A stretch of DNA of 42,512 bases, taken from positions 1-42,512 of the forward strand of contig CAWJHU010000002.1 in assembly GCA_963842815.1 (NCBI GenBank), given 5' to 3'. This document shows positions 448-41,013 of the stretch, in pieces (the stretch's first letter is position 1; every line of letters starts with the position of its first letter). The notes under the pieces are model-generated. The model was given only the letters and a program-made list of their open reading frames with translations. It did no database searches and was not told where the DNA came from. The position numbers and the translations under genes are program-made. The stretch comes from Candidatus Nomurabacteria bacterium (GTDB taxonomy: Bacteria > Patescibacteriota > Minisyncoccia > Phycocordibacterales > UBA9973).

Positions 448-457
448 TTCAACGATT

Positions 458-766
458 TTACTTCGCAAATTGTTGAAGCGCCGCGTCCATTTGCGTGTCT
501 TTACCAGCGGTGGCGTCGGCGGGGGCCGTAAGCGTAACCGGGATGTCGGGGGTAAGGCCGTTGTGGTTTAAATTAATGCCGTTGGGGGTTATCCACTTGG
601 CCACGGTAACTTTTATGGCTGGGATCTCCGGCTTTTCAAATTTTTGCATCATTTGATTCCAGGTTTTTCCGGATAACGCGCTTACGACATAGGTAGTTTC
701 CCAAAATTTATTTTGTATATTATCATCTTTTATTCCTCCGTCGGTATCTTGATTATTGCCAAATAA
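458..766 (-). pseudogene. Open frame: C-terminal continuation of the upstream prenyltransferase-repeat protein fused to an S41 (CtpA) peptidase C-terminal tail
   Basis: No stop from 766 to 461: NNQDTDGGIKDDNIQNKFWETTYVVSALSGKTWNQMMQKFEKPEIPA, then IKVTVAKWITPNG...GLTPDIPV...DTQMDAA, a typical S41 C-terminus. Confidence 0.7.
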
Positions 767-1977
767 TCAAGTGGAGTATTGCCACTTGTCCCGCCATCAG
801 CGGGATTTTTAACCCAATCTTCCGGTTTTTCATTCAGCGCCAGAATTCCTTCCATGGCCCAGGCGGTGGAAGAAACATTGCCGAAACTGCCATCGTCCTT
901 TTGATTTTGTTTTAAAAATTCTTTTGCTTTTCCCAAAGCATTTTGTATTTCCCCTGACCCAGGGTCAGGGGAGAAGGTTGAAAGTGCTTCTATTCCGGCT
1001 CCAGTCATATCCGCACTTTCATCCCAGGAGCCGTCATTTTTTTGTTTGTCTAAAATAAAATTAATATCCTTATTTATCATTTCGTCGGTTTGGGCAAATC
1101 CGGCATTTTGCAAGACAATCAGGGCAAAAATATCGTCGTTGTCTTCATCCGGATTCCCAAACTGTTTCCCATCAAAATCGGAAACTATTTTTTCTATATA
1201 ATTTTCGCCGTTTGTGCTGTATGGATTAAGACCCAGGGCCATCAGGGCCATGGCATGCCTTTCATAGTCCGTTAAAAGCCCGCCCGGAAGTTTTGATTCA
1301 TTTAAATATTTTGTTAACCCAGCAACTCCTGCTTGAGAATTTTCTGAAGCCAGCGCAAACGCCGCCCAATCCGTATAAAGACTTTCGCCAAAAGAGCCAT
1401 CGTCTTTTTGCTGTGAAATTATAAAATCAAAAGCCTTCTCCACATCAAACTGCGCTTTTACTGCTTTTCCCAGAGGAGCTGTTTCTGCAATAGGAGTGAC
1501 TGTTTCCACTCTGTCTACGTGAGGACCAACAGATCCGTGTGAAATGATTAATGTCGGCGAACCAGGGTCAATAAAATTCAAAGAAATTAAATCGCCGGGT
1601 TGCAATTCGTATTCATTTAATCCGGTCGCTCCCTCTATCTCATTTAAAGACCAGTCCCAATAATGATAAACATCATTACCATCCGTATCCTTGGTTGTAT
1701 AACCGGAAATATTATTTATGGAAGTTACAAAAGCACCCGGAGGCCAGCTCCAATCCCAACTGTTGGGAACCCCCGATTGTAAAATAGCGCAATAAGCAGT
1801 GGCAATATCAGGAGTGTTTATATTATTATCACTGTCACAGGGAGAAACTGTAATATTCTGATTATAAATTGAGTTGGAGGGTGTTTCAATGTCCAGATGG
1901 ATTGTCGTATCGGCAAAAGCGGAAGAGTAAAAAAATAAAATTATAATAACCAATAAAATCTTAGTAATTTTTTTCAT
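730..1977 (-). CDS. Secreted protein with N-terminal DUF4430-like beta domain and prenyltransferase/squalene-cyclase (alpha6/alpha6 barrel) repeats; probable frameshift near 757
   Basis: Signal peptide MKKITKILLVIIILFFYSSAFA (start at 1977). Motif YWDWSLN...GLNEYELQPGD. Repeats QQKDDGSF, QKNDGSW, NQKDDGSF. Confidence 0.8.
   Translation of the reverse strand: MKKITKILLVIIILFFYSSAFADTTIHLDIETPSNSIYNQNITVSPCDSDNNINTPDIATAYCAILQSGVPNSWDWSWPPGAFVTSINNISGYTTKDTDGNDVYHYWDWSLNEIEGATGLNEYELQPGDLISLNFIDPGSPTLIISHGSVGPHVDRVETVTPIAETAPLGKAVKAQFDVEKAFDFIISQQKDDGSFGESLYTDWAAFALASENSQAGVAGLTKYLNESKLPGGLLTDYERHAMALMALGLNPYSTNGENYIEKIVSDFDGKQFGNPDEDNDDIFALIVLQNAGFAQTDEMINKDINFILDKQKNDGSWDESADMTGAGIEALSTFSPDPGSGEIQNALGKAKEFLKQNQKDDGSFGNVSSTAWAMEGILALNEKPEDWVKNPADGGTSGNTPLDYLAIIKIPTEE
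948..975. repeat. In-frame palindromic element, copy 1 (TTTCCCCTGACCCAGGGTCAGGGGAGAA)
   Basis: 23-bp core palindrome 950-972; identical 28-mer at 23745-23772. Confidence 0.9.
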
Positions 1978-2395
1978 ATTTCCAAGAGACCATATTTCCT
2001 TCGTTAATCTTATAATTTGACACTCCAACAGTCGCTTTTTTGCCGTTCACATAATAAATCCAATTTTTATCTCCACTGTTTTTTATTCCATTTATTTCCT
2101 CAATCAGTTTTCCCATGCCGGAATAAGTCTTGTCTTTGAAATTTATTTTTCCTTCTTTCTGCAATTCCAGCATAAAATCATAAACGCTTTCTCCCTTCAC
2201 TATGACTGTTTCTAATTTTTCTCCATTAATTTCCAAGAACGCCTGGGCTTCTTTTTCTGTTTGGGTTGAGGTAAGGGAAAGAGAAGAAATAGAATTCGTG
2301 TTTTTCCCGATATCTTTTGTAAAAACAAAAATTAAAAAGAAAAAAAGCGATAAAGCTAGGCCCAACCATATTATTTTTTTGTTATTTTTTGGCAT
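1961..2395 (-). CDS. DUF4430 domain protein (transcobalamin beta-domain-like), N-terminal membrane anchor
   Basis: SVYDFM...YSGMGKLIEEINGIKNSGDKNWIYYVNGKKATVGVSNYKINEGNMVSWKY; hydrophobic N-terminus. Confidence 0.88.
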   Translation of the reverse strand: MPKNNKKIIWLGLALSLFFFLIFVFTKDIGKNTNSISSLSLTSTQTEKEAQAFLEINGEKLETVIVKGESVYDFMLELQKEGKINFKDKTYSGMGKLIEEINGIKNSGDKNWIYYVNGKKATVGVSNYKINEGNMVSWKYEKNY

Positions 2396-10148: not shown

Positions 10149-11700
<1,552 letters not shown>

Positions 11701-11870
11701 TTTGAAAATCGTTATAAAGTGCTTTGCATTTTATAGCTTATTGAGTCGGTATTGTGTAGCTCAATTGACTACACAATAGTTTTTATTCAAACTTAAAATG
11801 AGTAAGACTATATGGAAAGACATATAAAATAAAAAAGTTTATATAGAACGAAACAAAACATAGAACAGCA

Positions 11871-11907: not shown

Positions 11908-12378
11908 CACCTCACCCCGACCCCTCTCCGGAGTACCAGAGAGGGGAGAAATTAGAAGTTCATTTTTTAGACAATTCCTTAATTTTTGTTCTAATTTTAT
12001 TTAAGACGGAATTCAAATTATTTTCTATTTCAGAATTCCAAAATCTTAATTCATAAATATATTTAGATTCCAAATATATTGTCCTTTCTGTGTCGTATTC
12101 TCTGTTTTCTTTTAGATTATGGATAGAACCATCAAGCTCTATGGAAAGTTTTATTTTGGGTACATAAAAATCAAGAATATACATATCAATTGGATATTGT
12201 CTTCTAAATTTTATACCTATGTTGCTATTTCTTAACTCCTGCCAGAGTATTTTTTCTGCTTTTGTTTCTTCTTTTCTCAAATATCTAGCTTTAATTATTG
12301 TTTTAAATTTAGTCACTAAATAATTATATAATAAAATTCCCCTCGCCAGTAATCTGGAGAGGGGGTAGGGGTGAGGTG
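11908..12378. mobile_element. Putative DUF559 cassette bounded by inverted ~41-bp hairpin repeats
   Basis: Left CACCTCACCCCGACCCCTCTCCGGAGTACCAGAGAGGGGA (11908-11947). Right end (12337-12378) reverse-complements to CACCTCACCCCTACCCCCTCTCCAGATTACTGGCGAGGGGAA. Confidence 0.65.
11960..12316 (-). CDS. DUF559 (Vsr-like PD-(D/E)XK) endonuclease domain protein
   Basis: LRKEETKAEKILWQELR...KFRRQYPI..YILDFY...IELDGSIH...D.ERT..L...LRFWN; GTG start. Confidence 0.9.
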   Translation of the reverse strand: MTKFKTIIKARYLRKEETKAEKILWQELRNSNIGIKFRRQYPIDMYILDFYVPKIKLSIELDGSIHNLKENREYDTERTIYLESKYIYELRFWNSEIENNLNSVLNKIRTKIKELSKK

Positions 12379-12393
12379 TGTTATAATAATCAA

Positions 12394-16404: not shown

Positions 16405-16959
16405 ATGAACATAGAAGTTGAAATAAAAGTAAAAATAGATAATTTTAAAGAAATAAAGAAAAAAGTTTCTTCTTTGGGAAAATTAGTAAAAGCAATAAAT
16501 CAAATTGATGATTACTATATTCCTTCCCAGAGAGATTTTTTTGCTTTTAAGCCTCATCCAGTAGAATGGTTAAGGATAAGAACTAATCCGGATAAAGTTG
16601 TTTTTGAATATACCAGGTCTATAAATCCAAAAGCAGATGGAGATTATGATTATGCGGAAGAATATGAAACCGAAATTTCTAATGTAAAAGAATTTAAGAA
16701 GACTTTAGAATTTTTGGATTTTAAGAAAGTTATAACCATAGAAAAACAAAGAGAATATTGGATGTGTGGAGATATTGAAGTTGCCCTGGATGATGTAAAA
16801 GACCTTGGGTATTTTATAGAAGCGGAAGCGAAGGGGGATTTTAAGGATGAAAAAGAAGCAAAGAAAGAATGCATAAATTTTTTAGAAAAACTTGGTGTTA
16901 AGGATGTTGGGAAAAATTATAACAGGAAAGGATACCCAGAATTGTTTTTGGAAAAATAA
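16405..16959 (+). CDS. CYTH-domain protein (class IV adenylate cyclase/triphosphatase family)
   Basis: EVEIK (ExExK), WLRIR, EEYET, KQREYW, LGYFIEAE, GYPEL. Confidence 0.9.
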   Translation: MNIEVEIKVKIDNFKEIKKKVSSLGKLVKAINQIDDYYIPSQRDFFAFKPHPVEWLRIRTNPDKVVFEYTRSINPKADGDYDYAEEYETEISNVKEFKKTLEFLDFKKVITIEKQREYWMCGDIEVALDDVKDLGYFIEAEAKGDFKDEKEAKKECINFLEKLGVKDVGKNYNRKGYPELFLEK

Positions 16960-19605: not shown

Positions 19606-19610
19606 TAAAT

Positions 19611-19736
19611 ATGAAAAAAGTTATAGCCATAGAAAAGCAAAGAGAATACTAGATGTGTGGAAGTATTGAAGTTGCCCTGGATGTTAGGAAAAATTACAGC
19701 AGGAAAGGATATCCGGAATTGTTTTTGGAAAAATAA
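19611..19736 (+). pseudogene. Internally deleted, decayed copy of the 3' half of the CYTH gene
   Basis: Aligns to about 16723-16791 and 16902-16959; TGG->TAG premature stop at 19650-19652. Confidence 0.85.
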
Positions 19737-22765: not shown

Positions 22766-24085
22766 ATGAACGATTTTCGGTCATTTTTCAAAAATAAAAA
22801 GATAACCATAATGGGTTTGGGTATTTTGGGGCGGGGATTGGGATATACCAAATTCTTGGCTGAATGCGGGGCAGATTTGATAGTGACGGACCTGAAAACG
22901 AAAAAACAATTGGCGACTTCAGTAAAAGCTTTAAAAAAGTTTGGAAACATTAAATTTATACTTGGCAAACACAGATTGGAAGATTTTAGGAATAGAGATA
23001 TGGTAATTAAATCTGCCGGCGTGTCGATTGATTCTTTTTATATAAAAGAAGCCAAAAAAAATAAAATTCCGATTGAAATGGATGTATCTTTGTTTGCAAA
23101 ATGTGCGCCCAAGGTCATGATAATCGGTGTAACCGGAACAAAAGGCAAATCCATGACCACTATACTTATTTATGAAATTCTAAAACAAAATGAAAAATTC
23201 CTAAAACGAAAAATTTACATTGGGGGAAATATTCGCGGAGTAGCCACGCTTCCGCTCCTTAAAAAAGTAAAAGCAGGGGATATTTTGGTGTGTGAACTTG
23301 ATTCTTGGCAATTGCAAGGATTTGGCGATGCAAAACTATCTCCACATATTTCCGTTTTCACTTCCTTCATGCCTGACCACATGGGTTATTATAAAAATTC
23401 CATGAAAGATTATTTTAATGACAAAGCAAATATTTTTAAGTATCAAAAGAAGGGCGATATTCTGATTGTCCGTCCGGATGTGAAAAAATTGATTCCCAAG
23501 AACGGGAAGAGAAAATTAATGGTAGTAAAACCAGGCAATTTCCAAGAAGAAAACAGAACTTGTGCCTTAGAAGTGGCAAAACTTTTTAAAATTCCAGATA
23601 AGAATATTAGAAAGACTCTGAAAAATTTCAAGGGCCTGGAGGGAAGACTTCAATATGTAAAAACAATTAAGGGCGTCAAAATATATAACGACAATAATGC
23701 CACAATGCCGGAGGCCACCATGGCTGGCATAAAAGCCCTGTCAGTTTCCCCTGACCCAGGGTCAGGGGAGAAAAGAATTATTTTAATCTGCGGGGGAACA
23801 GACAAGGGACTTAAATTGGCTTCTTTTGTAAAAGTTATAAATAAATATTGCAAAGCGGTTGTGCTTATTCCAGGAACCGGCACGGAAAAATTGTTGAAAA
23901 ATCATAAATTACAAATTCCGAATGAAATAGGAAAAGATTTTAAAGATGTTATGAAAAAAGCAATGAGATATGCAAAAAAGGGCGACGCAATTCTTTTTTC
24001 TCCAGCATTTACTTCTTTTGGAATGTTTAATAATGAGTATGAAAGGGGAGGTTTGTTTATGAAAATTATAAAGAATCTAAAATAA
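22766..24085 (+). CDS. murD: UDP-N-acetylmuramoyl-L-alanine--D-glutamate ligase
   Basis: MGLGILG, GVTGTKGKSMTT, ELDSWQL, PDHM, GLEGRLQ, ILICGG.DK, LFSPAFTSFGMFNNEYERG. Confidence 0.93.
   Translation: MNDFRSFFKNKKITIMGLGILGRGLGYTKFLAECGADLIVTDLKTKKQLATSVKALKKFGNIKFILGKHRLEDFRNRDMVIKSAGVSIDSFYIKEAKKNKIPIEMDVSLFAKCAPKVMIIGVTGTKGKSMTTILIYEILKQNEKFLKRKIYIGGNIRGVATLPLLKKVKAGDILVCELDSWQLQGFGDAKLSPHISVFTSFMPDHMGYYKNSMKDYFNDKANIFKYQKKGDILIVRPDVKKLIPKNGKRKLMVVKPGNFQEENRTCALEVAKLFKIPDKNIRKTLKNFKGLEGRLQYVKTIKGVKIYNDNNATMPEATMAGIKALSVSPDPGSGEKRIILICGGTDKGLKLASFVKVINKYCKAVVLIPGTGTEKLLKNHKLQIPNEIGKDFKDVMKKAMRYAKKGDAILFSPAFTSFGMFNNEYERGGLFMKIIKNLK
23745..23772. repeat. In-frame palindromic element, copy 2 (inside murD)
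   Basis: Identical to 948-975; encodes SPDPGSGE. Confidence 0.9.
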
Positions 24086-25487: not shown

Positions 25488-26120
25488 ATGAATAAAAACA
25501 ACTTAATACGATTTGCTCAATCTCTTATGCTTTTGCCCTTTGTAACCGGGACAACAGTACCCTTAGGAAGTATCCTAATTGACACGACAAAAGAGCCTGT
25601 TCAAACCGTATTAATCCAAAAACAAAATATTGAAGCCGATGGAGTATTAGCTTTTAACCAAGTTATAGATCCAAAAGCTTTAGCGGAACTAAAAGCTCAA
25701 AAAGCCAAGGCGGATGCCATTGATAGTTATTTCAAGGCGCATGATATGCCGCTTTCAGGAACAGGCATGAAAATGGTGGAAGAGGCCGAGAAAAATAATA
25801 TTGACTGGCGTCTTCTGCCGGCAATAGCTATTCGAGAATCTACCGGTGGGAAACATGACTGTATAAAAGCGGACAACAATCCGTTCGGCTGGGGTTCTTG
25901 CAAAATTAGCTTCAATTCTACCGAAGAGGCCATTGAAACCGTGGCCAAGAACTTGGGGGGTAATAATCCTAAAACCGAAAGTCATTATGATAACAAAACT
26001 ACTAAACAAATCCTGCACGCTTATAATCCACCTTCGGTGGTACCTCGTTATGCAAACCAAGTGATGTCCATCATGGATGCCATTGGAGATGAAAACTTAG
26101 GGACCGAAACTAACGCATAA
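25488..26120 (+). CDS. Secreted lysozyme-like/glucosaminidase-type peptidoglycan hydrolase
   Basis: N-terminal signal/anchor; AEKNNIDWRLLPAIAIRESTGG, NNPFGWG, AYNPP..YA..V. Confidence 0.7.
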   Translation: MNKNNLIRFAQSLMLLPFVTGTTVPLGSILIDTTKEPVQTVLIQKQNIEADGVLAFNQVIDPKALAELKAQKAKADAIDSYFKAHDMPLSGTGMKMVEEAEKNNIDWRLLPAIAIRESTGGKHDCIKADNNPFGWGSCKISFNSTEEAIETVAKNLGGNNPKTESHYDNKTTKQILHAYNPPSVVPRYANQVMSIMDAIGDENLGTETNA

Positions 26121-26135
26121 AAAATAAAAATCTCA

Positions 26136-26173
26136 AAAGGGCCGGCCTTCGCAGATGCGAAGGCCGGCCCTTT
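26136..26173. terminator. Bidirectional terminator, 18-bp perfect stem
   Basis: AAAGGGCCGGCCTTCGCA-GA-TGCGAAGGCCGGCCCTTT between convergent genes. Confidence 0.85.
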
Positions 26174-26204: not shown

Positions 26205-27296
26205 TTACTCCAAATACACTAACGTCATTTTATGTTCTTTGGGTTCAAACAAAGTGATCTGGAAATTGTAATTCTTGCCGAGTTCCAATTTCTCGCGGAG
26301 TTTTGTTTCCGAGCCGAAAGTTGAATTGTGCACCAATCCGGCTACGCCTTCTTTGATGGAAACGAGAGCGCCATGCTTGTTGTATTTTATGACTACGCCT
26401 TTGATGATGTCGCCTTTTTTCAATTTTCCTTCAAATTCAGTCCAAGGATTTTCCTTCAGCGCTTTAATGGAAAGGGAAATTTTGCCGTCTTTTATTTCAA
26501 TTACTTTGGCGCGAACTTTGTCGTCCACCTTAAACATAGTGCGCGGGTCTTCCACCAGACCCCAGTCCAGTTCGGAAATATGCACCAAGCCTTCCAATCC
26601 GTCTTCCAGTTTCAAAAATACTCCGAAGTCCACAATTCCGGCAACGGTACAATCCACTTCATCTCCGACATTATATTTGCTTAGAATTTCTTTTTTTTCT
26701 TCAGGGTTATTATCTTTTTCGGAGAAAATCAGTTTGCCTTCTTTGGGAAGAGTAGAAATAATCATCACTGAAATTTTTTCTCCCACCAGTTTTTTTAATT
26801 CTTTCAAAATCTTATCTTTGTCCGAATCCAAAACACGGGGATAATGTTCGGCCTTAAGCTGGGAAGCGGGCAAGAATCCTTGAATACCTTGCCATTCCAA
26901 AATCAATCCGCCCTTATTTGCATCTTTTATTTCCAATTCCAGAACAGTTTTTGCTTTGATGGCCTTTTCAGCTTCGCTCCAGGTAAGTGCCTGCTTGGCT
27001 TCCTTGAGAGAGAGTTCCGTATATCCATTTTCATTTTCCACCTCAACGACTTTCGCTTTGATGATGTCGCCCAAACTTATTTTCTTGATTATGTCCTTGG
27101 CATTAATAAATTCACGGCCGTAAATAATACCTGTGCCGAAAGGGGACAAATCAACAAAAACGGATGATTTTTCAACTAAAATTACCGGGCCTTCCACCAG
27201 AGAGTCAACCTCCGGTCTGTCCTTGCTTCGGTCAACGATAGATTTCAGCAACAAGTTTTCTTTTAAATTTTCTTCTGCTATCTCTTCTTTCTTCAT
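26205..27296 (-). CDS. rpsA: Ribosomal protein S1 (short, about four S1 domains)
   Basis: Repeated S1 motifs: GIQGFLPASQ, DFGVF...GLVHISEL, HGALV...GLVHNS. Confidence 0.9.
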   Translation of the reverse strand: MKKEEIAEENLKENLLLKSIVDRSKDRPEVDSLVEGPVILVEKSSVFVDLSPFGTGIIYGREFINAKDIIKKISLGDIIKAKVVEVENENGYTELSLKEAKQALTWSEAEKAIKAKTVLELEIKDANKGGLILEWQGIQGFLPASQLKAEHYPRVLDSDKDKILKELKKLVGEKISVMIISTLPKEGKLIFSEKDNNPEEKKEILSKYNVGDEVDCTVAGIVDFGVFLKLEDGLEGLVHISELDWGLVEDPRTMFKVDDKVRAKVIEIKDGKISLSIKALKENPWTEFEGKLKKGDIIKGVVIKYNKHGALVSIKEGVAGLVHNSTFGSETKLREKLELGKNYNFQITLFEPKEHKMTLVYLE

Positions 27297-33560: not shown

Positions 33561-34184
33561 ATGGGAAATTTCGTATGTAATGGAACGGTTACAAATATAG
33601 GAGACGTCCTGTGTAAAGTCGGCTCTCTTTTGAGTTTAATTATTCCGATTCTGATTACTCTAGGTGTTGTTTACTTTATATGGGGGGTTGTCACTTATTT
33701 TATTGGTGGCGACGAAGAAGCAAAGAAAAAAGGGAGAAGCAGGATTATTTATGGTCTTATCGGTTTTGTGATTATTGCCGGGCTGGATGGTCTTGTCTAT
33801 ATTGTTATAAGAACTTTTGGACTTGACCAGGGTTCTCAACTTGTTTCCAATTTGGTTCAAAATAATATTTCCGTTATAAATTCCGGTTCTGCCTTTTGCA
33901 GTCTTGCCGATAACCCGACCTTGGCAAGCCTATTGAATTTTGGAACCTGTATCATTAATAATTCAGTCATTCCTCTGATTATTGCCCTGGCCGTAGCTAT
34001 GTTTATTTGGGGAGTAGTCCAATATGTAATAAATAGCGACGAGGAAGCAAAAAAAGAGAAAGGCAAGCAATTTATGATTTGGGGAATTATCGGTTTGGCA
34101 GTTATGGTCGGCGTGTGGGGCTTAGTACACATACTGGGGTCTACTTTCAATATTAATTATGCCATTCCACAAGTAAAACCATAA
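33561..34184 (+). CDS. Tandem two-domain TrbC/VirB2-like pilin
   Basis: Two copies of FIWGVV.Y...DEEAKK.G...I..G.IG. Confidence 0.8.
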   Translation: MGNFVCNGTVTNIGDVLCKVGSLLSLIIPILITLGVVYFIWGVVTYFIGGDEEAKKKGRSRIIYGLIGFVIIAGLDGLVYIVIRTFGLDQGSQLVSNLVQNNISVINSGSAFCSLADNPTLASLLNFGTCIINNSVIPLIIALAVAMFIWGVVQYVINSDEEAKKEKGKQFMIWGIIGLAVMVGVWGLVHILGSTFNINYAIPQVKP

Positions 34185-34277
34185 AGTTGCGCTGGTCTTG
34201 TTTATTTTATGATATAATAGGTAGATTATTATTAGTATTATAAGGTCGCTTTATTATTAGTATTATTATAAGAATTT

Positions 34278-34655
34278 ATGAAGAAAAAATTAAGTATATT
34301 GTCGGGGATTGTTTTGGGTTCTATGCCTCTTATGGCTTTAGCGCAAAATGCAACAGGCTGCGCAAGCGTAACGTTGGGGACAATTCAAAGCATAATTTGC
34401 AAAATCGGGAATATCTTGGATACTGTTATCCCGATACTTGTAGTTTTGGGAGTAGTTTACTTTGTCTGGGGAGTAGTTCAATTTGTTATTTCCACCGACG
34501 AAGAGGCTAAAGCAAAAGGGAGAAGCCATATGATTTATGGCATCATCGGTTTGGTAGTTATTGTGGCTATGTGGGGACTTGTCGGCATTGTCACCAAGAC
34601 TTTTGATTTGAATGGTTCTGCCAATGTTACTATTCCGACGGTTCCTATAAATTAA
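34278..34655 (+). CDS. TrbC/VirB2-like pilin
   Basis: Signal peptide MPLMALA; FVWGVVQFVISTDEEAKAKGRSHMIYGIIG. Confidence 0.82.
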   Translation: MKKKLSILSGIVLGSMPLMALAQNATGCASVTLGTIQSIICKIGNILDTVIPILVVLGVVYFVWGVVQFVISTDEEAKAKGRSHMIYGIIGLVVIVAMWGLVGIVTKTFDLNGSANVTIPTVPIN

Positions 34656-34657
34656 TC

Positions 34658-34948
34658 ATGACTGAAAGTGTTGATACTTTTATTTCGAATGTGGATAAGC
34701 TCATTGTAAACCCGCTTATCATATTTCTTTTTGCTTTGGCAGTGGTGTACTTTTTGTATGGCGTATTTCAGTTTATTTCAAATTCGGAAAGCGAAGAAGC
34801 CAAAACAAAAGGCAAGAGCCATATGATCTGGGGAATTATCGGAATTGTCATAATGATGGGAGTGTTTACCATCCTGAATATGATTATGCGCACTTTCAAC
34901 ATACAAGGAATAAATCCGGAACAGGGGACTGTGGAAATAAATCCATAA
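34658..34948 (+). CDS. TrbC/VirB2-like pilin
   Basis: NPLIIFLFALA..YFLYGVFQFI..SEEAKTKGKSHMIWGIIG. Confidence 0.8.
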   Translation: MTESVDTFISNVDKLIVNPLIIFLFALAVVYFLYGVFQFISNSESEEAKTKGKSHMIWGIIGIVIMMGVFTILNMIMRTFNIQGINPEQGTVEINP

Positions 34949-39843: not shown

Positions 39844-41013
39844 ATGGCAAAATCAAATCATAAAATATATCTGGATTATGCGGCCGGAGTATCGGCCAAC
39901 CCAAGTTCCATACATGAAGAGGGGATTAAAGCTAAAAGAAAACTGCAAAATGCACGCATGGAAGTCGCTACTGTTTTAGGAGCTAGGTCTGATGAAATTA
40001 TTTTTACCAGCGGGGGTACGGAGAGCAATAATCTGGCAATACAAGGAATAATTATCGAGTGTCCAACACCCGACAAGCGAGTGTCCAACACACGACAACC
40101 TCATATCATCACCACCAACATAGAGCATCCTTCGGTTTTGGAAACTTTTAAAATGCTTAAGAAAAGAAAACTAGCGGAGATTTCCATAGTGCCGGTTGAA
40201 AAAAACGGCATAGTTGACCCCAAGAAAATAAAAAAGGAAATAAAGAAAAATACCGTGCTGGTCTCCGTGATGTATGCAAATAATGAAATCGGCACTATTC
40301 AGCCCATTCACGAAATTGCCAAAGAGATAAGATATTATAAAAAACAAAATAAAATAAATAATTTATTTTTTCACACCGACGCTGTGCAGGCAGTGAATTA
40401 TTTAGACTTGAATGTAGAAAAACTTGGAGTGGATTTGCTTTCTCTCTCCGGTTCCAAAATAGAAGGAGCAGGCAGAGTAGGAATTTTATATAAAAGAAAA
40501 TCTGTGTCTCTGACGGCAATATTTGGCGGGGGGGACCAGGAATCAGGACTGCGTCCCGGTACAGAAAATTTGCCGGAGATTTTAAAATTTTCTAGGGCAT
40601 TAAAATTAGCGCAAAAAATTAGAGAAAAAGAAACAAAACGCTTAATAAAATTGCGAGATTATTTTATTAAAAAACTAGAAATTCAAAAACAAAATTTAGT
40701 TTTGGGTTTTCTAGTTAATGGTGATTTAAAAAACAGACTGCCCAATAATATAAATATTACATTTCCCAAAATCCCAAGCGATCTTTTGGTGTTGGAACTT
40801 TCAGCAAAAGGAATAATGGCTTCATCCAAAAGCGCCTGCAAAAGTTCTCGCAAAGAGGGTTCCTATGTCATTCAAGCCATCCGTCCGGAATCAAATATTG
40901 AAATAGGTGGACTCCGTTTTTCTCTGGGCAGACAAACAACCAAAACAGACATTGACTATACAATTAAAATTTTATCTCAAATTTTGCAAAAACTGAAAAA
41001 GTGGTATAATTGA
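39844..41013 (+). CDS. iscS: Cysteine desulfurase (IscS/NifS family)
   Basis: IYLDYAA, FTSGGTESNN, IEHPSV, MYANNEIGTIQP, HTDAVQA, RPGTEN, SSKSAC. Confidence 0.92.
   Translation: MAKSNHKIYLDYAAGVSANPSSIHEEGIKAKRKLQNARMEVATVLGARSDEIIFTSGGTESNNLAIQGIIIECPTPDKRVSNTRQPHIITTNIEHPSVLETFKMLKKRKLAEISIVPVEKNGIVDPKKIKKEIKKNTVLVSVMYANNEIGTIQPIHEIAKEIRYYKKQNKINNLFFHTDAVQAVNYLDLNVEKLGVDLLSLSGSKIEGAGRVGILYKRKSVSLTAIFGGGDQESGLRPGTENLPEILKFSRALKLAQKIREKETKRLIKLRDYFIKKLEIQKQNLVLGFLVNGDLKNRLPNNINITFPKIPSDLLVLELSAKGIMASSKSACKSSRKEGSYVIQAIRPESNIEIGGLRFSLGRQTTKTDIDYTIKILSQILQKLKKWYN
40056..40099 (+). repeat. 22-bp tandem duplication inside iscS
   Basis: CGAGTGTCCAACACCCGACAAG + CGAGTGTCCAACACACGACAAC (20/22). 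Confidence 0.85.

Follow-up and report, generated by a model that had tools for sequence, protein, structure and literature searches.

A translated hairpin repeat in two genes of a Candidatus Nomurabacteria contig and its probable relation to REP/REPIN-RAYT systems

Systems that pair repetitive extragenic palindromic (REP) sequences with REP-associated tyrosine transposases (RAYTs), which Nunvar reportedly described in 2010 and which are known as 'REPtrons', are the closest counterpart of the element analyzed here, a 28-nt repeat that occurs twice, in two unrelated genes, within a 42.5-kb stretch of DNA (42,512 nt, hereafter the window) from contig CAWJHU010000002.1 of a Candidatus Nomurabacteria bacterium. 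REP/REPIN-RAYT systems comprise hairpin repeats, inverted doublets of these repeats (REPINs) and a single-copy transposase gene flanked by them (Bertels and Rainey 2011, PMC3116915; Di Nocera 2013, PMC3733652). The mechanism proposed for them is copying or exchange of single-stranded DNA (ssDNA) hairpins by the RAYT. A minority of described REPs are intragenic, different REPs occupy about the same recB site in two Xanthomonas species, the REP superfamilies are defined by a GTAG or CGTC tag, and the Rickettsia repeats RPE-4 and RPE-6 have been treated as CGTC REPs (PMC3733652). Judged by its sequence, the window 28-mer can be classed with REP-like units and represents one allele of a large hairpin family that extends across Paceibacteria and has the form TCCCC-nnn-CCC-n-GGG-nnn-GGGGA. 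We consider it probable that this family constitutes a system of REP/REPIN-RAYT type whose copies persist for the most part as Pro/Gly-rich inserts translated within protein loops of a compact genome. A full-text literature search for work linking RAYT or REPIN with Patescibacteria or the candidate phyla radiation (CPR) found no paper.

Rickettsia palindromic elements (RPEs), reportedly described by Ogata et al. in 2000, were proposed as the established analogue in the initial annotation of this DNA. Elements of the RPE-1 type span ~100-150 bp, encode 30-50 residues and carry long conserved sequences; to our knowledge, RPEs have no associated transposase and are confined to Rickettsia. The analogy holds for the habit of palindromes that lie in frame in genes of a small AT-rich genome and are translated at tolerated surface positions, and it breaks down over size, sequence conservation and the transposase link: the unit found here measures 23-28 nt (8-9 residues), or 44-53 nt as a doublet, its sequence is widely variable and it is linked to a RAYT-like gene. 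Intragenic REPs and RPEs are precedents for translated copies. The small dispersed repeats (SDRs) of heterocystous cyanobacteria, reportedly described by Elhai et al. in 2008, and the GC clusters and double-hairpin elements of fungal mitochondria are GC-rich mobile palindromes of ~20-50 nt in AT-richer genomes, sometimes preserving the frame of coding sequence. They resemble the window element in size and palindromy and differ from it in sequence and hosts, and we know of no report associating them with a Y1 transposase. Palindrome-associated and miniature inverted-repeat transposable elements (PATEs and MITEs) derived from IS200/IS605 have in common with the present system a Y1 HUH transposase and the recognition of subterminal ssDNA hairpins; unlike the single symmetric hairpin seen here, for which no target motif is definable, they have a body bounded by a left and a right end that differ from each other, and they insert 3' of a 4-5-nt target.

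The repeat itself is directly observed. The 28-mer TTTCCCCTGACCCAGGGTCAGGGGAGAA has exactly two exact matches in the window, 22.8 kb apart (Table 1). Allowing up to three mismatches adds no further match there, 100 shuffles that preserve dinucleotides gave none, and no isolated half-site of the palindrome occurs elsewhere in the window. It had been described as a 28-bp palindrome; the 28-nt identity stands, and the palindrome proper covers only 23 nt (TCCCCTGACCC-A-GGGTCAGGGGA, in which a stem of 11 bp encloses a single central base). Because the ends common to both, TT...GAGAA, are asymmetric, the two copies are oriented alike on the + strand, and they are followed by GAGAAGG or GAGAAAAG. Both lie in frame and free of stop codons and are read as S-P-D-P-G-S-G-E from opposite strands, so that the initial claim of one identical repeat encoding the same peptide in two unrelated genes on opposite strands is borne out by the window search and the translations; frame c of the unit holds a TGA. 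The predicted hairpin has a free energy of -11 kcal/mol as ssDNA and -19.5 kcal/mol as RNA (z about -3.6 to -4.2). No Rfam family was found at the hairpins, the window contains no REPIN-like doublet, and the pattern of an intrinsic terminator (GC stem plus T-run, intergenic) is absent at the two copies, both of which lie inside ORFs. Homologues of both host proteins are named Nomurabacteria or Paceibacteria at source, in agreement with the CPR host first suggested. The public lake-water run X1, an independent data set, contains a 210-nt contig that spans 23709-23918 with 0 differences, which makes an assembly artefact unlikely for the MurD copy and speaks against the assembly duplication that had been named as a refuting case; this support applies to the MurD copy only, no public run having covered copy 1. 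When a 50-nt hairpin region was searched against four runs for other insertion contexts, only the MurD contig was recovered.

Copy 2 occupies a loop of the C-terminal domain of MurD, between the helix ..AGIKAL and the strand IILICGG, and when it is aligned with the solved structure of MurD 3LK7, its extra residues fall in the corresponding helix-strand gap. We aligned 120 orthologous MurD proteins and took the DNA of 80 MurD loci from metagenomes, and the site proved to be polymorphic: among 63 distinct sequences of the loop (..AGIEAL to KKIILICGG), 31 are short (6-9 aa) and hairpin-free, a hairpin is present in 27 and the other 5 are long relics, all loops of up to 9 aa lacking a hairpin. On a neighbour-joining tree of the 120 proteins, the presence and absence of the hairpin require at least 23 gains or losses. 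No two of the inserts are alike, yet each is a palindrome, with stems of 9-26 bp, and they include both single units and doublets of two inverted units (L006/L014, L016, L017 and L055; 44-53 nt) with perfect stems of 22-26 bp. Within the doublets, a G in unit 1 versus a T in unit 2 abolishes an in-frame TAA and is matched by a complementary change in the far arm, which indicates that the doublet is translated and that the long stem is maintained. Two candidates at this site were rejected. Inserts of ~17 aa are not two tandem hairpins, since their DNA forms one long hairpin from two inverted units, and the MurD protein P0051, which reads FPDPGSGE, does not carry a copy of the window element, its DNA being a different, imperfect palindrome (TTCCCCGACCCCGGCTCGGGGGAA).

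Copy 1 lies in an inter-helix loop of a repeat in host protein 1 (..GAGIEALSTF|SPDPGSGE|IQNALGKAKEF..), which has a signal-peptide-like N-terminus and whose database version starts from the ATG at 1977. In most orthologues the site reads F-NQNEQ-VKNAL, and in many it reads SPIPGIGE, SPTPGVGE, SPTRGVGE or similar; in P0122 the site is a perfect palindrome with a 13-bp stem (TTTCCCCTATCCC-C-GGGATAGGGGAAA). The orthologues with a hairpin often equal the hairpin-free ones in length, as if 24 nt had been swapped, and the window version is three codons longer. The original view of a small dispersed repeat occupying protein loops is thus sustained at both hosts, where orthologues are hairpin-free or filled by other palindromes; the orthologue comparison that had been suggested as a check yielded hairpin-free sites at both and no definable target duplications. 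Both window sites follow AGI(E/K)ALS, and a shared target motif was rejected on finding that RAYT and other sites do not. The SPDEQ of P0143 at the protein-1 site was likewise dropped as a half-deleted element, its codons (AGC CCA GAT) being unrelated to the hairpin. Other inserts occur in this loop in P0127, P0131, P0138, P0146, P0149, P0154, P0159, P0162 and P0222; one is the GC-rich DPLLTSPLAGGG, which back-translates to a CCTCCCC..GGGGAGG hairpin, and another type comprises ~35 residues (..GVSQADGPRAS..DSDL.KEEF).

GC-rich perfect hairpins surveyed across ~1 Mb of related loci fall into two classes, one intergenic, flanked by A/T runs and terminator-like, and one intragenic and in frame within long ORFs, where about 60 related perfect hairpins were found. 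Their intragenic positions recur, among them the loop in the C-domain of MurD, another in its N-domain, the equivalent loop in a MurC-like ligase and a '..FYGF' loop in the gene upstream of murD. The members share the feet (T)TCCCC...GGGGA(GA), kept across sites with unrelated flanks, around a variable, self-complementary middle, and the frame TCC CCN ... GGG GAR yields the Pro/Gly-rich turn S-P-x-P-G-x-G-E. In an alignment of 18 units, double-sided changes are observed at 9/9 stem pairs, with 98.8% pairing. Units are multi-copy within and between loci: GGAAGTCSGACTTCC recurs in eight loci, multi-copy families are present in L040, L045 and L071, and GTCGGGTGTTGGACACCCGAC is found, as hairpins or doublets, in two genes of L045 (one site being its MurD loop) and in L050, with an arm in L012. 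A relic of this second family stands in the window and is translated in frame as ..ECPTPDKRVSNTRQP... Peptide alleles such as SPTPGVGE, SPIPGIGE and SPKSDLGE recur across RAYT-like proteins, MurD and host protein 1. The description of the repeat as "minimal" was consequently too narrow, the window element being one allele of a large family that also forms REPIN-like doublets. As a separate observation, the motif ..HNKKD-AAAAIAAA(A).. of MurC-like proteins is encoded by a perfect 9-13 bp palindrome (GCGGCGGCGGCTATAGCCGCCGCCGC) with GCG/GCC codons unusual for an AT-rich genome, and in L077 it contains a synonymous compensatory pair. Since this palindrome is native and no insert, these genomes may favour or generate palindromy as such.

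A scan of a genome collection for the core identified four exact copies with a C/G centre, all in one Paceibacteria metagenome-assembled genome (MAG), JBBRVK01; two further matches in high-GC actinobacterial genomes were treated as chance, and metagenome and viral contigs scanned for CCCCTGACCCNGGGTCAGGGG gave no match. JBBRVK01 holds at least six copies or partial copies of a near-identical unit in 22 kb, some of them intergenic. In L004, three copies accompany a RAYT-like gene, one inside the gene and in frame, one just 3' of it within a 20-bp stem and one 5' of it with one mismatch. Elsewhere in JBBRVK01, a composite intergenic repeat of ~90 nt occurs twice (L005) and consists of a window-type hairpin, a conserved spacer AACCCTTATAATAYAATCTTTATTGCGA and a second hairpin CCAGATAGGGC..GCCCTATCTGG. 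The arrangement of L004, in which hairpins stand 5' of, within and 3' of a RAYT-like gene, is found in six independent related loci in all (L004, L012/13, L071, L089, L093 and L094), each with a hairpin of its own; the 5' hairpin of L071 is inverted relative to the 3' copy, and doublets stand 5' of the gene in L012 and L093. The unit of L093, TCCCTTGAACCAGGTACAGGGGAGAAGG, is the one most closely related to the window element, down to the asymmetric GAGAAGG tail, and the internal unit of L094 equals unit 1 of the MurD-loop doublet of L017 in 25/25 bases, mismatch included. After the 3' hairpin of the gene, three loci also share the motif AGTTTTCCAC.

The RAYT-like proteins have NF047646 REP_Tyr_transpos as their best NCBIfam match (E 1e-6 to 5e-18). 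A single-sequence search of the PDB returned no match, and a profile of 46 homologues returned a sole one, 4ER8, the REP-associated tyrosine transposase TnpA-REP of E. coli. An AlphaFold (AF2) model with a predicted local distance difference test score (pLDDT) of 69 also has 4er8_A as its top Foldseek match, followed by the TnpA proteins of IS608 and ISDra2, and in it the residues encoded by the hairpin fall in a loop of low confidence that joins the HUH strand to the helix after it. Homologues show no variation in the HUH motif or in the YIHLNP tyrosine motif, and they number at least 7,486 at E <= 1e-10 among 8,000 candidates scored in the protein database; one family member is named 'REP element-mobilizing transposase RayT' at source. 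Nearly all of the 120 closest proteins (P0241-P0360) carry a segment of the S-P-x-P-G-x-G-E type directly after the HUH motif. The strict form SPxPGxG[ED] is present in 54/120, and its variable residues x and x' are codon-complementary in 48 of these 54, against 13.5 expected from shuffling; P0263 is the only other RAYT-like protein with SPDPGSGE. The gene order FtsK ... PG_binding_1 / RAYT-like gene / ... rplJ rplL is kept in four contigs, and this conserved synteny suggests vertical inheritance of a single RAYT-like locus.

On this evidence the RAYT-like protein is likely the mobiliser; its substrate would be ssDNA, and we infer that the source genome has a gene of this kind beyond the window. 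Produced from that single gene, a RAYT-like transposase of the HUH tyrosine (Y1) class may recognize the foot and stem of the hairpin on ssDNA and copy or exchange hairpin units in single-stranded form. As these genomes are ~90% coding and AT-rich, most new copies would fall in genes, and the survivors would be those that are in frame, stop-free and located in permissive surface loops, which may tolerate the S-P-x-P-G-x-G-E turn and carry the element as extra translated residues. Perfect copies would be young; AT mutation pressure would convert them into relics such as FPKDKKFE, or they might be deleted or replaced by the current hairpin variant of the genome, and such decay, deletion and replacement would leave a mixture of orthologue sites that are hairpin-free, perfect or relic. 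That the same codons serve as sites again and again may be due to filtering by selection, to a preference for certain targets or to the replacement of units at old sites.

The likeness to REP/REPIN-RAYT systems extends to short GC-rich hairpins of genome-specific sequence, to dispersed copies in the form of singlets and inverted doublets, and to a single gene of Y1 HUH transposase type flanked by its own hairpins, as in the six related loci. The differences are also clear. The stem here is perfect, with a loop of 1-5 nt and no bulge, and the conserved part is TT-TCCCC / GGGGA-GA; copies are intragenic and translated, whereas typical REPs are extragenic (JBBRVK01 has intergenic ones as well); and nearly all of the 120 closest homologues have an in-frame hairpin after the HUH motif, a feature without a known description. 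The host, moreover, is a CPR lineage.

Several points weigh against assigning the window element to such a system. Neither the two window copies nor 20 related units have GTAG/CTAC or CGTC/GACG beside the stem. Only two copies are visible in the source genome, which is represented here by the window, and tblastn found no RAYT-like gene within the window. The RAYT-like proteins score below the curated cut-off of NCBIfam, and their structural match is modest (template-modelling scores 0.42/0.54). The 598-kb genome that contains L089 has a RAYT hairpin different from the one in its protein-1 orthologue, and its MurD site is hairpin-free. The covariation count is partly circular because its 18 units were picked as palindromes, so that it documents diversity and is no proof of selection. 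A target-site duplication or nucleotide-level empty site was not definable at the window sites because the nearest orthologues are only ~75% identical, and the equal lengths at the protein-1 site, on sequence comparison, fit replacement better than simple insertion.

An extension of the REP/REPIN-RAYT reading, which we put forward as tentative, joins two propositions: that the RAYT-like gene keeps its own cognate hairpin after the HUH motif, and that hairpins, instead of inserting at random, are exchanged like cassettes at fixed 'landing-pad' codons of essential genes. The post-HUH hairpin could then serve for self-recognition or autoregulation, or belong to the mobilised unit, and the landing pads might comprise MurD, other Mur ligases, the secreted cyclase-like protein and the transposase, with loops rewritten by the current allele. 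Were this the case, it would generate steady Pro/Gly-rich loop variation in otherwise streamlined proteomes.

The genomes of CPR, or Patescibacteria, are viewed as minimal and repeat-poor. If the REP/REPIN-RAYT reading is true, replicators of this type persist in CPR bacteria, where there is nearly no intergenic space, through survival by translation. The hairpin system would then be a source of indels in conserved proteins, affecting alignments and phylogenies of markers such as MurD, and the hairpins would offer natural strain-typing markers. They may also account for some assembly breaks, since many RAYT-like genes lie on contigs of ~1-2 kb. Because the same codon positions are reused, the family would provide a tractable case for the study of target choice by RAYT-type enzymes.

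Table 1. Coordinates and sequences of the features discussed. L-numbers denote related loci.
Feature	Sequence	Coordinates	Strand	Description
Copy 1	Window	948..975; core 950-972		Minus-strand reading F-SPDPGSGE-I; host ORF 730-2028 (-)
Copy 2	Window	23745..23772; core 23747-23769		Plus-strand reading V-SPDPGSGE-K; host ORF 22766-24085 (+)
Window hairpin, forms for comparison with RAYT-borne / genome-wide units	Window			TCCCCTGACCCAGGGTCAGGGGA; TCCCCTGACCCWGGGTCAGGGGA
Host gene 1	Window	730..2028	-	Secreted prenyltransferase/squalene-cyclase-repeat protein; Pfam SQHop_cyclase_C, weak DUF4430
Host gene 2	Window	22766..24085	+	murD, UDP-N-acetylmuramoylalanine--D-glutamate ligase; Pfam
MurD-loop single units, examples				TTTCCCCTAAGTtagACTTAGGGGAAA; TGCCCTACCCCgGGGGTAGGGCA; TCCGCTAGGcaagaCCTAGCGGA
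RAYT-like gene	L004 (JBBRVK01)	455-1135		226-aa ORF; ..MPNHFHLYIT-SPDPGSGE-TRES..; Pfam Y1_Tnp
RAYT-like gene	L012	6282-6965
RAYT-like genes	L089/L093/L094	10001-10700
RAYT hairpin unit	L012/13			CAGAAGGAAGCaagGCTTCCTTCTG
RAYT hairpin unit	L071			ACTTGGCG..CGCCAAGT
RAYT hairpin unit	L089			TTCCCCTAAGTCGGACTTAGGGGAA
RAYT hairpin unit	L093			TCCCTTGAACCAGGTACAGGGGAGAAGG
RAYT hairpin unit	L094			TTCCCATACCCCAGGGGTACGGGAA
Composite intergenic repeat	L005 (JBBRVK01)	161-250; 491-580
Second-family relic	Window	40059..40100	+	Two tandem half-arms GTGTCCAACAC(C/A)CGAC, arm of GTCGGGTGTTGGACACCCGAC; in class-V aminotransferase gene 39844-41013
MurC-like palindrome	L020	2668-2689
MurC-like palindrome	L023	8554-8575
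MurC-like palindrome	L053	5928-5953
MurC-like palindrome	L077	14761-14786
DUF559 (Vsr-like endonuclease) gene	Window	11960-12316	-	Cassette 11910-12380; E 5e-31; directly 3' of 16S rRNA gene
16S rRNA gene	Window	10150-11702
Inverted repeat in 16S rRNA gene	Window	11279-11348		35+35 nt
GC-rich stem between ORFs	Window	26136-26173		Convergent ORFs 25488-26120 (+) and 26205-27296 (-)
Repeated ORF 3' end	Window	16718-16959; 19609-19736		3' end of ORF 16405-16959
68-nt coding repeats	Window	33713-34859		Four copies

Among the rival explanations, the one that survives best, and which we still regard as improbable, holds that the hairpins are host-useful signals under selection (mRNA stabilisers or processing sites, pause sites for ribosome or RNA polymerase, or DNA sites of a structuring protein) and that gene conversion accounts for the identical copies. 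REPs of other bacteria are thought to function as RNA elements (PMC3733652). The predicted RNA hairpins are stable (-19 to -21 kcal/mol), their stems are kept perfect through compensatory changes, as in L085 versus L009 and in the long doublets, the same codon positions are used repeatedly, and even the native Ala-rich motif of MurC-like proteins is a perfect palindrome with a synonymous compensatory pair. Yet half of the orthologues are hairpin-free at the MurD site and several have decayed relics, which argues that the hairpin is dispensable, and the hairpin sequences are wholly different between lineages. The elements also lie inside ORFs, where ribosomes unwind hairpins, and have no T-run or Rfam family, and selection for a host signal leaves the association with transposase genes unexplained.

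Far less probable is an origin of the palindromes on the spot, with fragile loop-coding sites undergoing fold-back (template-switch) synthesis or hairpin-end processing. This would suit arms that are perfectly complementary whatever their sequence, inserts that differ between lineages at one site and versions that swap native residues one for one. A process of this kind would, however, take its template from the site itself, whereas identical units are shared by unrelated genes within one genome (in the window and in L045) and by different genomes (L045/L050 and L094/L017) and also stand beside RAYT-like genes, and the feet TCCCC/GGGGA are conserved at sites whose flanks are unrelated.

Slightly weaker still, and in our view very improbable, is the proposal of the initial annotation that the DUF559 endonuclease encoded in the window mobilises the palindrome because the repeats flanking its gene look alike. 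The gene appears to form a small cassette bracketed by GC-rich inverted repeats of ~45 nt (CACCTCACCCCGACCCCTCTCC..hairpin..GGGGAGAA), and it occurs with the same repeats in L006 and L065, with a further DUF559 gene in L090. These repeats do contain C-runs and end in GGGGAGAA, and the one in L006 includes CCCCTGACCCC, the 11-mer arm of the JBBRVK variant. Compared with the ~45-nt repeat CACCTCACCCCnnACCCCTCTCC...GGGGAGAA, however, the window palindrome has only the C-runs and the GGGGAGAA end in common. The middle of the DUF559 repeat varies (CCCCGACCCC, CCCCTACCCCC, CCCCTGACCCC and others; -G-, TA, TG, TT, AA... in six copies), the shared 11-mer being found in 1/6, and the MurD hairpin of L006 is unrelated to the DUF559 repeats of that locus. 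The co-occurrence check proposed at the outset went the same way, DUF559 being present in 3/85 MurD-anchored sources (80 MurD loci, L001-L005 and the window) and hairpins in ~45. No DUF559 gene was seen flanked by TCCCC...GGGGA hairpins, as against six RAYT-like genes so flanked, and we know of no strand-transfer activity of DUF559 proteins.

An assembly or chimera artefact, a chance match or protein-level selection on the peptide has next to no likelihood. Palindromes can mislead assemblers and public-run coverage was low, but the shuffles gave no match, the MurD copy is reproduced in the independent run, dozens of independent assemblies have analogous in-frame palindromes at the MurD site, and protein-level selection cannot account for a perfect DNA symmetry of 11-26 bp.

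Further features of the window were recorded alongside the repeat. The stem between two convergent ORFs is a perfect GC-rich one of 18 bp with A/T flanks, probably a bidirectional terminator and not a member of the repeat family. No 23S gene comes after the 16S rRNA gene in the window, and the inverted repeat inside the 16S gene (CCGCCCCCGCCTTAGC...GGCGGGGGAGG, with an A/T-rich centre) is possibly an expanded helix. The 3' end of one ORF is repeated 2.8 kb downstream with 88-91% identity, stop included, and its sequence looks like a gene-fragment duplication. Finally, the copies of the 68-nt coding repeat, 66-75% identical to the reference copy, lie at the 3' ends of neighbouring small ORFs, whose products resemble small membrane proteins, paralogous to one another, that terminate in ..EEAKxKG..IIGLVVI...

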